Shown here one piece after another: positions 9,426 to 12,535 of a DNA stretch of 34,281 nucleotides. A program made the translations under genes and the position numbers. Each line of letters begins with the position of its first letter. The first letter of the stretch is position 1. A model generated the notes under the pieces. The model did not search any database. It had not been told where the DNA came from and saw only the letters and a list, made by a program, of their open reading frames with translations. This DNA is from a virus (taxonomy: Duplodnaviria > Heunggongvirae > Uroviricota > Caudoviricetes), in IMG/VR virus record IMGVR_UViG_2703718815_000004, one strand, 5' to 3'.

Positions 9426-11414
9426 TTACCCCGGTATTTGTTGCGTTCCGGCGAGTTGTGCCAGTATGTCGGAACCCGGCGATTGTCGCACCTGAAGCTC
9501 AATTATTGCGCGGGCATTTTTGCCAGCACCCTGAAGGTTATCTCTGGCATTTCTTAGCTGATTCATAATACCAGGGTGTTGATCCAGGGCTCCCTGAATC
9601 TGAGGCAATAATTTAATTAAATATTTTACAGTCTCCATTCTCAAACTTAGATTTCCATCTCTATCAATACGACCTCCGTTATATGCCGTAAGCATTTTTG
9701 CCACATCGCCTTTATAACGCCGATTCAGATCATTTAAAAAGCGGCCAGCCGCAAGAGTGGATTTATTTGGGTCATAAACATCATCACCCACCAGACCATA
9801 CTGTTTTGCGGTGCTATCCCAGAATTGCCACAACCCCTTAGCGAATCTACCTTTTTCATCAGGAGTTCCTCTTGCCAGAGGATTCCACGAAGATTCAACT
9901 TCTGCGATAGCTGACATCATATTTTTAGGAAGTCGATAAGTATTATTGGCTTGCTCTACAAAGTTCTGAATATTTCTCTTTAAATCATTAGGCATACGGT
10001 AATTTTTATATACATCATCCTGTTTATAAAACTCACCCGTATACTGATTTGTCATCGGGTTTGCTCCCGGCAACGCACCACCGAGATATTTATTTCCAAA
10101 TGCCGCAAGAACTGGATCTGCCTGTTCAGCACCAACTCCGGTTCCGGGGAGATATTTATCTTCCCCACCGATCCATTTGATAGCTGACCATATTGCTTTT
10201 GCAATCCGGCTCACCGCCAGAGAAAAATCGTCAAGATCATTTTTAAATTGTTCGCTATTCAGCCACTTACCAAGTTTCTCCAGCCCTTCGCCAGCCTCAG
10301 CGAGAATTTTCTGAAAATTTCCACCATTCAGAAAACCTTCAATATTGGATGTCAGCCCATCAGATGCACCTGTGATTAGTGGGTTATATCTGGCGAGAGC
10401 TGCATACCAGGAATTTGATATTCTGTTTCCATTTACCATCAGGTTACTCACCGTATCCTGATAACCTGACTGCATAGCTGGCGTGAGGTAAGCACCGAGC
10501 AACCTAGTATTTGATGCAAATCTCTCGTTCAGTTGGGGGATCTTGTCCAGATTCGCTTCCACCTGGTTAGTTGTCGCGACATCAACAAATCCAAGCCCTT
10601 GTCCGTTGAGAATCCCCTGAGTAAGTCCTGAACCTTTATATTGCTTAACGAGAGATGCAAGCGCGCTCATAAGTTTGGGCAGATTCTTTGCTGCACCATC
10701 TCGAGGATCAATTCCAAGACTGACCAGACCAGCATAGTTTGGATCATTTGGATTTTTCTGTGCGTTCGCCAGATGCTGAACCAGTTCTTCTGTGCCAGAA
10801 AAATATGGCGAATAGGTGGCACGTGCGGCCTGCATCTGTGCGGTTTCCATACCCAGCCCCTGAGCCACGCTGTATTGCGCTGCAACCTTGCTCGCCATAT
10901 ATCCGTACCCGAAAGCACCGACCGAACCAAGCGCCGCAATTTTGCTCCCCCAGGATACAGTCGTTTTAAACAGCGTTTTCAGTCGTGAATTGGTCGTTTT
11001 AAGCGTTGAATTGATCTGCTTGTAAGTTTTCAGCGTCCCCTGAGCGTTTTTACCCAGACTACTGAGATACTTATCAAACATCGTTTCGCCGCGACCTTTA
11101 TAGTTGCTCACCAGCGAATCAGGTGTTTTTCCGCTACCGACAAAGCGCCCTTTTTCATCCCTTAAACGTCCATCGGTGGGCGCAGCCGGAACTGGCGCAG
11201 GTGAAGATGGTTTCCTGGGAGCCTGATTGGCTTCTCCGCCCGCAGTTGCCTGCTGCGTGCCACCTCCTGGACCTGTATTTGAAGGTATTTTAAGCGGCGT
11301 CCCTGCAGGGCCAATCATCAGCCCATTGCGATACTTTTCAAATATCGCCTCAAGTCGCTTAAGGTGTTCTTCATTAACATCCAGTGTCAGAACCGGCATC
11401 TGATTACCTGACAT
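9426..11414 (-). CDS. Tail tape-measure-like protein with a lytic transglycosylase (SLT) domain
   Basis: 662 aa. Segment AIAEVESSWNPLARGTPDEKGRFAKGLWQFWDSTAKQYG...LNDLNRRYKGDVAKMLTAYNGG matches the SLT catalytic-domain pattern. Follows the frameshifted chaperone pair. Confidence 0.7.
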   Translation of the reverse strand: MSGNQMPVLTLDVNEEHLKRLEAIFEKYRNGLMIGPAGTPLKIPSNTGPGGGTQQATAGGEANQAPRKPSSPAPVPAAPTDGRLRDEKGRFVGSGKTPDSLVSNYKGRGETMFDKYLSSLGKNAQGTLKTYKQINSTLKTTNSRLKTLFKTTVSWGSKIAALGSVGAFGYGYMASKVAAQYSVAQGLGMETAQMQAARATYSPYFSGTEELVQHLANAQKNPNDPNYAGLVSLGIDPRDGAAKNLPKLMSALASLVKQYKGSGLTQGILNGQGLGFVDVATTNQVEANLDKIPQLNERFASNTRLLGAYLTPAMQSGYQDTVSNLMVNGNRISNSWYAALARYNPLITGASDGLTSNIEGFLNGGNFQKILAEAGEGLEKLGKWLNSEQFKNDLDDFSLAVSRIAKAIWSAIKWIGGEDKYLPGTGVGAEQADPVLAAFGNKYLGGALPGANPMTNQYTGEFYKQDDVYKNYRMPNDLKRNIQNFVEQANNTYRLPKNMMSAIAEVESSWNPLARGTPDEKGRFAKGLWQFWDSTAKQYGLVGDDVYDPNKSTLAAGRFLNDLNRRYKGDVAKMLTAYNGGRIDRDGNLSLRMETVKYLIKLLPQIQGALDQHPGIMNQLRNARDNLQGAGKNARAIIELQVRQSPGSDILAQLAGTQQIPG

Positions 11415-11706
11415 TCAATACCCCTCCCGTCGTCGTGCATTTACGCAGCTCACGAAACTGAGCTGCTGTTTTTACATTCAGACCGGAATTTGCCCAGATG
11501 TCGCTGAATCCGTCTCCGGCTGAGTAGTCGAGGATGTCGCTGATAACGTGCTCGCCGTCGCGCCAGAACTGGCGACAGGCTTCAATGTCGGCAATGAAGC
11601 AATCCATTCCGTAAGACTCAAGGATGAAGTGCGACTGTTCCACATTCCACTGACTACCAGCATCATCTGTTCCGTCTGCTCCGGTGTGTTTATCGACGAG
11701 ACGCAT
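11404..11706 (-). CDS. -1 frame extension ORF of the tail assembly chaperone (GT-like product via programmed frameshift)
   Basis: Overlaps 11478-11706 in the -1 frame relative to the chaperone; the overlap begins at the T8 run (plus-strand A8 at 11709-11716). Confidence 0.4.
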   Translation of the reverse strand: MRLVDKHTGADGTDDAGSQWNVEQSHFILESYGMDCFIADIEACRQFWRDGEHVISDILDYSAGDGFSDIWANSGLNVKTAAQFRELRKCTTTGGVLNVR

Positions 11707-12095
11707 GTAAAAAAAACGAGTTCACCTGCCACATCATCAAATTCAACGATGCCGCGCTCCAGCGCCATATCAAGCGGAATCGTGTCGTAGCCTTTCCCTT
11801 CGACTGGGTAAACCAGATTCGCAAGGCGAATGATTTCATTCACGAGCGTATTGCGAACGCCCTTTTCGCCATCCCAGATATTCATATCTGAGGAGATCCG
11901 TTCCAGCATAAGGCAGGCGATACGCGGCCCCGAAACGACGCCAAGACCTTCAGAAAAAATGGCAGAAAAGGTTTTACTCAGGATGAAGAAATGCTCTTTA
12001 AACACCTCTTTGCTGATCGGCGTGGCGTGAATCCAGGCTTTACCTTTCTCGGTCTGGACAGGAATAATCAGGTTTAAATTTCGCGCGATTTTCAT
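11478..12095 (-). CDS. Tail assembly chaperone (G-like), zero-frame product
   Basis: ATG at 12095 (track start is 12107); lies between the tube-like and tape-measure genes. Contains a U UUU UUU slippery run. Confidence 0.55.
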   Translation of the reverse strand: MKIARNLNLIIPVQTEKGKAWIHATPISKEVFKEHFFILSKTFSAIFSEGLGVVSGPRIACLMLERISSDMNIWDGEKGVRNTLVNEIIRLANLVYPVEGKGYDTIPLDMALERGIVEFDDVAGELVFFTCVSSINTPEQTEQMMLVVSGMWNSRTSSLSLTEWIASLPTLKPVASSGATASTLSATSSTTQPETDSATSGQIPV

Positions 12096-12535
12096 ACCAA
12101 ATCCCACATTTCAGAGTTGATGTAATACGTACCGGTAATGGTGATGGCCACACCCGGCTCGCCCCCGGCGAAGGTCATATCCTGCACGTTGGTGATCGCC
12201 GTGTTATAGATATCGAAGTCACCAAACACCGTGCTGTCGCTATACACTTTTGCGTCGCCGATCGTGGCGTTTTTTTCCCATTGCGCCTTGAATTGTTTTC
12301 CCAGCGCCTGGCTACGCAGCAGATGAACACGCGCCTGTAAAATCATGTATGGCTGCGGCGACTGCACGGCTCCCGTCATGGCGGGTAAAAACTCCGTGAT
12401 ATTGCCCTGAAAGGACAATTCGACGCCTTCTTTTGCCAGAAATGAGGCGGACACATTCAGTTCGGAATGAGAGGTGAATTTAACGCTGGCGCGAACCCGG
12501 TTAAGGGTGCCAACGGGGATCATTGGATTAGGCAC
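12092..12535 (-). CDS. Tail tube protein (putative)
   Basis: 147 aa ORF between the sheath-like gene and the chaperone; the order sheath-tube-chaperone-tape measure is the canonical myovirus arrangement. Confidence 0.5.
   Translation of the reverse strand: MPNPMIPVGTLNRVRASVKFTSHSELNVSASFLAKEGVELSFQGNITEFLPAMTGAVQSPQPYMILQARVHLLRSQALGKQFKAQWEKNATIGDAKVYSDSTVFGDFDIYNTAITNVQDMTFAGGEPGVAITITGTYYINSEMWDLV

Follow-up and report, generated by a model that had tools for sequence, protein, structure and literature searches.

A probable programmed −1 frameshift within the predicted fold of a candidate tail assembly chaperone of an Escherichia coli prophage

The DNA analysed here, referred to as the window, is the whole 34,281-nt stretch of IMG/VR virus record IMGVR_UViG_2703718815_000004 (Caudoviricetes). 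We focused on a minus-strand gene located between the putative tube and tape-measure genes of this contractile-tailed E. coli prophage (positions 11478..12095, Table 1). Our results indicate, with a probability that we place at about 0.82, that a programmed −1 frameshift on the heptamer U UUU UUU makes two products from this gene, called here G and GT by analogy with phage lambda, which have a common 129-residue N-terminal core and differ in everything that follows it. The locus has the known G/GT architecture and brings no new principle; what is new is the position of the slip site and an overlap of 55–90 codons that is selected in both frames.

Divided into the codons of the 205-aa open reading frame (ORF), the minus strand around the slip site reads GGT GAA CTC GTT TTT TTT ACA TGC, codons 127–130 being GTT TTT TTT ACA, and the run of eight T residues (T8, 11716..11709) corresponds to A8 at 11709–11716 of the plus strand. 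The heptamer lies in register with the zero-frame codons GTT, TTT and TTT and has the canonical X XXY YYZ form, in full agreement with the initial annotation, which had been made from the letters of the window and a list of its ORFs. As a TGA closes the −1 frame two codons 5′ of the run, a productive shift is possible at the T run alone; 3′ of this stop the −1 frame reads T-R-F-F-Y-M-R-L-V-D-K and ends in N-V-R-stop. The −1 ORF, 100 aa long when called mechanically from ATG 11706, opens at the run, and its TAA (11406..11404) overlaps the gene starting at ATG 11414, so that the earlier description of a 100-codon ORF reaching the tape-measure start matches the sequence. The predicted fusion product is 129 + 101 = 230 aa long. 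We counted 76 zero-frame codons (228 nt) between the slip and the zero-frame stop, the same figure as had been proposed. The run as such is unremarkable: the window contains 13 T7 runs vs. 16.9 expected, and with no excess of such runs the case rests on position, register and conservation. Two more T8 runs are present in the window, one at 33188–33195 (minus strand), within a 298-aa minus-strand ORF (32475..33371), and the other at 32564–32571 (plus strand).

To assess conservation at short range we used 77 close relatives with 68–98% amino acid identity, i.e., the window itself, 72 IMG/VR loci, one GTDB genome and three annotated records. The run was T8 in 74 of these, T7C (U UUU UUC, still slippery) in one and T9 in two, of which one is an assembly with other frameshifts; T8 was kept while flanking synonymous sites were saturated, and the zero-frame length of 205 aa was held in nearly all relatives. 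The 22 nt 3′ of the run (window 11687–11708, minus strand ACATGCGTCTCGTCGATAAAC) were also near-invariant amid saturated flanking synonymous sites; this is more readily ascribed to residues that both frames conserve (T-C-V-S-S-I-N and Y-M-R-L-V-D-K), which would suffice to account for it, a sequence-specific stimulatory role being the less likely alternative. Codon-phase variability changed along the gene. Upstream of the slip the variable phase was phase 3, that of frame 0; in the first ~100 nt past the slip the pattern was mixed; and from ~110 nt past the slip to the tape-measure start it was phase 2, the third position of the −1 frame. The ratio of non-synonymous to synonymous differences (pN/pS, summed pairwise) was 0.55 (frame 0) and 0.94 (frame −1) over the 18 codons directly following the slip, 0.98 and 0.30, respectively, in codons 36–56, and 0.88 and 0.34 3′ of the zero-frame stop. 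By both of these sequence measures (phase pattern and pN/pS of 0.30–0.34) the −1 ORF behaves as a coding sequence under purifying selection. Absence of the −1 ORF from homologues and a run polymorphic in length among close relatives were the two outcomes that the initial annotation had named as fatal to its proposal; instead, the −1 ORF proved conserved and the run essentially invariant. Two loci (L077 and L078; GCA_030370555.1 and GCA_030370565.1) have T7 at the site together with many broken tail genes and are probably homopolymer-error-prone assemblies; errors in them would account for a free-standing 97-aa “T” protein (P0127) in the database.

More distant relatives were collected by an exhaustive HMMER search, which gave 640 clusters at 50% identity. 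The zero-frame ORF formed 426 clusters at 90% identity among close relatives, while the −1 ORF was called as a separate gene in 15 database clusters. Most of the matches were 186–200 aa long and aligned to the N-terminal 135 query residues only, and in a minority the N-terminal part was fused in frame, through a VFFY junction, to the T domain, the part encoded in the −1 frame. IMG/VR was in addition scanned with a degenerate T-domain motif pattern, which makes the resulting DNA sample unbiased for the slip site. Among the 80 loci with a detectable N-domain motif, 76 had this motif offset by +1 from the T frame and four had both in one frame, so the comparison with related phages that had been called for showed the −1 layout almost throughout. 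The 80 distinct junctions were GTT TTT TTT (T8) in 53 cases, xxT TTT TTT (T7) in nine, T7C in one, xxG/xxC TTT TTT A (T6) in seven, TAT TTT A (T4) in three, T9 with an in-frame fusion in four and T9 holding the T8 register in one; the remaining two had no run and were chance pattern matches. U UUU A is the shortest motif shared by every lineage. The T part carries the conserved motifs YG..F.AD[IV][DE]..R.[FY]WR[DE]G...L[DE][WY]..G.GF...A..[FY]R, and its alignment is variable across the first ~25 columns.

Selection on the nucleotides of the run was evaluated in a sample of 31 lineages with <60% T-domain identity to each other, most of which have a high GC content at third codon positions and use TTC as the preferred Phe codon. 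At the slip site, however, all 59 Phe codons were TTT, vs. 19.1 expected from local codon usage (log10 P −31.7), and the codon before the Phe pair ended in T in 25 of the 31 lineages vs. 6.7 expected. Codon choice of this kind marks the U run as a selected nucleotide signal. Besides the T8 register, T9 occurs in place of T8 in ~4 of ~105 distinct loci, in which the N and T parts are fused in frame and the conserved G tail is intact in the +1 frame. These loci are L040=L153 (IMGVR_UViG_2896595138_000001), L138 (IMGVR_UViG_2917413769_000001), L080=L149 (IMGVR_UViG_3300004607_000085) and L076=L087 (IMGVR_UViG_2675903388_000005), the last of which carries further frameshifts.

RNA structure prediction downstream of the slip, recommended in the initial annotation, gave no stable fold in the window's lineage (minimum free energy z-scores +0.4 and +2.0). 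The alifold consensus 3′ of the slip reached −2.9 kcal/mol with no covariation, and Rfam returned no match at E≤1. On these results we rejected a downstream stimulatory RNA for this lineage. An upstream Shine-Dalgarno-like GGTGA was likewise rejected as a stimulator, since it is not conserved in distant lineages. Within the 31-lineage sample four lineages have T6 (GTG/ACC/GCG TTT TTT A), three have T4 (TAT TTT A) and five have exactly T7, all with the same layout. In four of the seven T4/T6 lineages we observed a strong hairpin 5–8 nt downstream, with z-scores from −2.1 to −4.3: L099 (−25.8 kcal/mol, z −4.3), L160 (−30 kcal/mol, z −3.0), L196 (z −2.9) and L197 (z −2.1). More generally, degenerate slip sites often came with very stable hairpins 5–8 nt downstream (L099, L160, L196, L197, L112 and L092, in the 60 nt that follow the slip site; z −2.1 to −4.9, energies down to −30 kcal/mol). 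Seen across these sequences, slippery-site strength and stimulator look like the two sides of a natural trade-off, in which the T8 lineage of the window would do without a hairpin.

The alternative that survives best, although we consider it unlikely, is transcriptional slippage, in which RNA polymerase would stutter on T8 (A8 in the template) and add one U to some transcripts, from which the fusion would be translated. The run is one base longer than the heptamer needs and is T8 in 53 of the 80 distinct junctions, the window's lineage is devoid of stimulatory RNA structure, the T9 in-frame loci (L040/L153, L138 and L080/L149) could yield G by deletion slippage, and transcriptional slippage is known in insertion sequence elements and type III secretion genes (PMC5009743). 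Yet the T7, T6 and T4 runs found in five, four and three of the 31 lineages are too short for efficient polymerase slippage, and in the four T4/T6 lineages with stable hairpins the distance to the slip is that usually seen for ribosomal −1 stimulators. Relative to the zero frame the run keeps its register and is never off by one, which matters for tRNA re-pairing but not for stuttering, and insertions would also give +2 and −1 transcripts and hence truncated products. Programmed transcriptional realignment typically relies on homopolymers of ≥9 nt (7–8 nt being marginal) and is register-independent, whereas the window has T8 and the register is fixed. As four of the seven T6 and T4 lineages possess hairpins, a trade-off that is classical for ribosomal −1 frameshifting and difficult to square with stuttering of the polymerase, ribosomal slippage is favoured, and we regard it as clearly the more probable of the two for the family, with a small transcriptional contribution at T8 as a minor possibility.

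The long continuation of the zero frame had been noted as unusual in the initial annotation. Both its length and its unusualness were borne out; the region is not, however, idle read-through. We had to consider that the frameshift is real while the 76-codon run-on is open merely because the amino acids used in the T frame seldom give rise to stops. Taken alone, one sequence has an open zero frame, conditional on its T-frame protein, with a probability of 4–24% by codon resampling and up to ~50% by permutation, which is indecisive (p 0.04–0.5); moreover, the phase pattern from ~110 nt past the slip fits −1-only coding, and the last 35 residues are of low complexity and predicted to be disordered. 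Analysis of the 31 saturated lineages ruled chance out. The zero frame was open for ≥54 codons in every one of them (54–89 codons past the slip in relatives), the log10 p values adding up to −17 when codons were resampled by usage and to −20 when synonymous codons were permuted. The codons of the T-frame motif [FILV]-[LIVF]-x-D point in the same direction: the first was NTC in 31/31 lineages (TTC for all 24 Phe) and the second ended in T in 30/31 vs. 7.0 expected (log10 P −21.9). These choices include disfavoured second codons, such as CTT, rare in high-GC genomes, and are exactly those giving Ser-Leu in the zero frame. Synonymous diversity of the T frame was 0.23–0.31 in the overlap vs. 0.55 for the zero frame 5′ of the slip, and right after the slip the pN/pS of frame 0 was the lower of the two, as given above. 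Distant relatives have a common zero-frame tail motif, W-x3-T-x-L-x2-T-E-[FWY]-x2-S-L-P-x-S-T ... S-S-[IV]-P-[SHV]-stop, and in a 60-protein alignment at 32–46% identity F128 and F129 were invariant and W152, S167 and L168 were ≥90% conserved. With residues 130–170 also built into the predicted fold (see below), an idle extension appears very improbable, and the codon evidence identifies it as a conserved, selected coding region and the overlap as genuinely dual-coding.

The AlphaFold2 model of G, based on the 60-sequence alignment, had a mean predicted local distance difference test score (pLDDT) of 88.8 and a predicted template modelling score of 0.80, residues 1–170 being confident and 171–205 disordered. 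A helix of residues 119–135 spans the slip site, and a helix (138–152), a strand (155–157) and another helix (161–167) are encoded past it; up to residue 170 the block pLDDT of this post-slip part was 94–97. The model of the fusion, obtained with a shallower alignment, reached a pLDDT of 78.9. The N core was retained, residues 137–150 scored <50, and the T domain was helical and only moderately confident (pLDDT 68–80). According to these models the frameshift would swap C-terminal modules and not simply add a domain.

That the −1 ORF is an ordinary separate gene, initiated at ATG 11706 to give a 100-aa protein next to an incidental T run, is similarly improbable. An ATG directly follows the run in the window and in all enterobacterial relatives, the ORF is called separately in a few genomes (the 15 clusters mentioned; phrog_14324), and a U-rich leader would be able to enhance initiation. 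Nevertheless, we found no Shine-Dalgarno motif before any candidate T-frame start (5–14 nt upstream) in the 31 lineages, eight of these have no ATG, GTG or TTG between the junction and the conserved T domain, and conservation does not extend to the Met that follows the junction, in whose place distant relatives have G, L, V, A, C, S or H. Together these three observations exclude independent initiation as a general mechanism. A separate gene would also leave unexplained the exclusive use of TTT at the slip, the preceding T in 25/31 lineages and the conservation of the junction Tyr codon 5′ of the ATG. Finally, the idea that the true gene is a single 230-aa ORF with T9 and that T8 is a homopolymer error or an inactivating mutation is hardly tenable: a few database proteins of 226–233 aa are indeed in-frame fusions (P0001, P0139, P0142, P0155 and P0158) and run-length changes do occur in error-prone assemblies (L076 and L077/L078), but T8 or an equivalent register is present in ~96% of >100 distinct, deeply diverged loci from isolates, complete genomes, phage isolates and metagenomes, the zero-frame tail past the slip is conserved and selected, which is unexpected if it is never translated, and several fusion entries (P0002–P0004) change frame at other positions, as sequencing errors would.

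The tail region of the window is organised as summarised in Table 1. Matches to PHROGs in the window include the sheath (phrog_205), baseplate hub, wedge, portal, terminase and a capsid protein, and the genes comprise terminase, portal, capsid, sheath, a tube-sized gene, the chaperone candidate, an SLT-domain protein in tape-measure position, and baseplate hub and wedge. The order of sheath, tube, chaperone and tape measure given in the initial annotation was recovered in this arrangement, with the sheath supported by PHROGs and the tube and tape-measure genes recognised by position and size. The 662-aa protein in tape-measure position has a C-terminal SLT lytic transglycosylase domain (residues 486–583; PF01464, E 1e-20), and its public annotation is “lytic transglycosylase” only. 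The stop of the tube gene and the start of the chaperone candidate share ATGA at 12095..12092, and the T-frame TAA lies 8–11 nt inside the tape-measure gene; these tight junctions (12092–12095 and 11404–11414) suggest translational coupling along the tail operon.

Table 1. Features of the slip site, the two reading frames and the neighbouring tail genes (positions in the window)
Feature	Position	Strand	Basis or remark
Tail sheath gene, 445 aa	12547..13884	minus	phrog_205 “tail sheath”, E 7e-55
Tube-sized gene, 147 aa by mechanical GTG start	12092..12535	minus	position only; phrog_6566 of unknown function
Zero-frame gene (“G” form)	11478..12095	minus	205 aa + stop; ATG 12095, TGA 11480..11478
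TGA closing the −1 frame, two codons 5′ of the T run	11722..11724	minus	−1 reading R-stop-T-R-F-F-Y-M
Slippery heptamer U UUU UUU, X XXY YYZ register	11709..11715	minus	inside T8 run 11709–11716; A (11708) next
“T” part, read in the −1 frame, 101 codons (first codon TAC, 11709..11707; stop TAA, 11406..11404)	11404..11709	minus	frame translation; matches phrog_14324
Dual-coding overlap, 76 zero-frame codons (G residues 130–205), equal to the first 76–77 T-part codons	11481..11708	minus	
Folded C-terminal subdomain of G, residues 130–170	11586..11708	minus	AlphaFold2 and frame-0 pN/pS
Variable fusion linker in the −1 frame, about residues 137–155 of the fusion	11631..11688	minus	AlphaFold2 and T alignment
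Ser/Thr-rich tail of G, residues 171–205, predicted disordered	11481..11585	minus	AlphaFold2 pLDDT ~52; C-terminal [IV]-P-x kept in family
Gene in tape-measure position, 662 aa	9426..11414	minus	ATG 11414..11412; position and size; phrog_7694, phrog_2013 “lytic tail protein”

A prophage of enterobacteria, the window has 97% identity in this region to Escherichia phage Rac-SA53, and the prophage was found in 93 of 5426 complete E. coli genomes. It is also 90% identical here to a phage deposited as Actinobacillus phage vB_Apl-pPE4 (PP818812.1); with a tail region at this level of nucleotide identity to an E. coli prophage and an identical gene layout, the Actinobacillus host label looks odd. Two assemblies labelled E. 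coli DH5alpha (NZ_CP026085.1 and NZ_CM135829.1) carry the prophage at an identity equal to that of E. coli W, KO11FL and LY180, which may be a strain-label issue. The 205-aa ORF is labelled “hypothetical protein” in Rac-SA53, vB_Apl-pPE4 and RefSeq E. coli, and a frameshift annotation was absent from all records inspected. In PHROGs the zero-frame product falls into phrog_11810 (E 1e-83) and the −1 ORF into phrog_14324 (E 6e-60), both of “unknown function”. Pfam gave no family at E≤0.1 for G or GT, there was no significant profile match to the known tail assembly chaperone families (the Phage_TAC_ series of Pfam, P2 GpE and lambda gpG), and the PDB sequence search returned nothing relevant to the chaperone candidate. 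A Foldseek search of BFVD yielded one significant match, an uncharacterised protein, with annotated tail assembly chaperones among the non-significant matches only. We found no paper on the tail genes of this prophage family; Rac-SA53 was mentioned only in an unrelated survey. It is from synteny and architecture that we infer a chaperone function of the gene pair.

Several known systems resemble the locus in part. In the myophage P2, gpE and gpE+E′ are a tail chaperone pair made by a −1 frameshift on a T-rich run, from a gene between the tube and tape-measure genes. Like P2, the phage studied here is a contractile-tailed temperate enterobacterial phage with a −1 shift on a T-rich run and an extension that overlaps the tape-measure start. 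In contrast, P2 E is ~90 aa long with the slip near its end, whereas here a 129-aa core is shared, G continues for 76 codons and the overlap is far longer; neither Phage_E nor GpE of Pfam matched the chaperone candidate. Lambda Rz/Rz1 is a long same-strand phage overlap in which both products are functional and the embedded gene has its own start. It resembles the present overlap in that identical nucleotides are read in two frames for two functional products (function being predicted here), and differs in that the second frame is reached here by recoding only and the products share an N-terminal domain.

The closest parallel is lambda G/GT, with the conserved frameshift of Xu, Hendrix and Duda (2004). 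The features of gene architecture by which such loci are recognised are found here as follows: the gene pair lies between the major tail (tube) and tape-measure genes, both placed by position and size; the second ORF overlaps in the −1 frame and has no credible start (76/80 loci in this layout; 8/31 lineages startless); and the slippery sequence is in the overlap, in the right register and conserved (T8 in 74/77; TTT in 59/59). Position, −1 overlap, register and conservation hence agree with the G/GT-type arrangement proposed in the initial annotation, while the distance from slip to stop differs. As in lambda, there are two products with a common N terminus, encoded between the major tail/tube and tape-measure genes (PMC5009743 and PMC10885494), the −1 shift takes place on a slippery heptamer, the −1 ORF is startless and extends as far as the tape-measure start, a downstream structure is dispensable, and the arrangement is conserved though the sequences are not. 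Unlike here, the lambda slip is close to the G stop. The mean distance from slip to G stop is 26 nt in the SEA-PHAGES set and 36 nt in the Xu set (PMC10885494), vs. 228 nt (76 codons) in the window and 54–89 codons in relatives. The slip lies within a helix of the modelled G fold, of which residues 130–170 are a part, so GT would lack both the final ~40 residues of this fold and the G tail. The lambda heptamer is G GGA AAG vs. U UUU UUU here, the phage here is contractile-tailed, and we found no sequence similarity and no significant fold similarity between lambda G and this family. E. coli dnaX (tau/gamma) is comparable in its −1 tandem slip on a homopolymeric heptamer within a long ORF, with a shared N-terminal part and different C termini (PMC5009743). 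Its heptamer A AAA AAG is accompanied by an upstream Shine-Dalgarno-like element and a downstream hairpin, with an efficiency of ~50% (PMC5009743). In contrast to the present case, however, the shifted dnaX frame stops almost immediately and gives the shorter product, whereas here the shifted frame encodes a 100-residue domain and the window's lineage has no stimulators.

Some points weigh against our interpretation. Homology to a characterised tail assembly chaperone could not be demonstrated with Pfam, the PDB sequence search or BFVD Foldseek, and the tube-gene and tape-measure-gene assignments depend on position and size. We found no reporter or mass-spectrometry data for the family. In E. 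coli the heptamer U UUU UUU shifts comparatively poorly (Atkins et al., 2016; PMC5009743), and the window's lineage has neither a stimulatory structure nor a conserved upstream Shine-Dalgarno element. The eight-U run is also long enough for some RNA-polymerase slippage, and if the T9 loci are real and viable, either register would be tolerated, which would fit transcript-level heterogeneity better.

Taking these points into account, we propose the following scheme for the programmed −1 frameshift. Most ribosomes would read through the run and produce the 205-aa G, in which residues 130–170 would complete a compact alpha/beta fold followed by the disordered Ser/Thr-rich tail. A minority would slip back one nucleotide: the two tRNA-Phe in the P and A sites on UUU UUU would re-pair on U UUU UU, and the next codon would be UAC. 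These ribosomes would make the 230-aa GT, in which a variable linker of ~20 residues joins the N core to a helical T domain of ~75 residues, and would terminate atop the tape-measure start codon. Shifting in the window's lineage would take place without downstream RNA structure, as in lambda, and since none is needed its efficiency is probably low; in lambda there is ~1 GT per 30 G (PMC5009743). On the model of lambda G/GT, coating of the tape-measure protein would fall to the shared N core, and recruitment of tube and, indirectly, sheath subunits to the T domain. Because the slip would fall inside the G fold, ~76 codons before the G stop, alternative C-terminal modules would be encoded in two frames, both kept by selection.

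It is conceivable, although we hold this more tentatively than the frameshift itself and somewhat below even odds, that the slip site was placed within the G fold deliberately, making G and GT isoforms with mutually exclusive C-terminal modules. In such a case the module found in G only would consist of two helices, a strand and the disordered Ser/Thr tail with its terminal [IV]-P-x, and the one found in GT only of the linker and the helical T domain; possibly the two, written into the same 55–90 codons in two frames, have co-evolved across hundreds of clusters. The G-only module could then have its own function, e.g., in self-association along the tape measure or in docking to another tail component, a suggestion that we make with equal caution. 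The incomplete G core of GT may need neighbouring G subunits, and the G:GT stoichiometry may in this way be built into the structure. If the isoform proposal is true, the overlap would be among the longest recoding-dependent dual-coding regions known in bacterial viruses.

For annotation, our results mean that at least 640 clusters (at 50% identity), now carried as “hypothetical protein” in RefSeq E. coli and Salmonella prophages and as PHROGs 11810 and 14324, can be described as a probable frameshifted tail assembly chaperone pair, and that the fusion product, which none of the inspected records contains, can be entered as well. Frameshift predictors of the PRFect type use the closeness of the slip to the zero-frame stop and miss sites more than ~30–50 nt away (PMC10885494); with a slip-to-stop distance of ~230 nt the family is a clean counter-example for them. 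The locus also offers, in compact natural form, two protein modules in overlapping frames that are reached through recoding and are both under purifying selection at the same time, useful for the study of overlapping-gene evolution and codon constraint. Within one homologous family, the series of T8, T7, T6 and T4-plus-hairpin sites amounts to a natural titration of slippery-site strength against a downstream stimulator.

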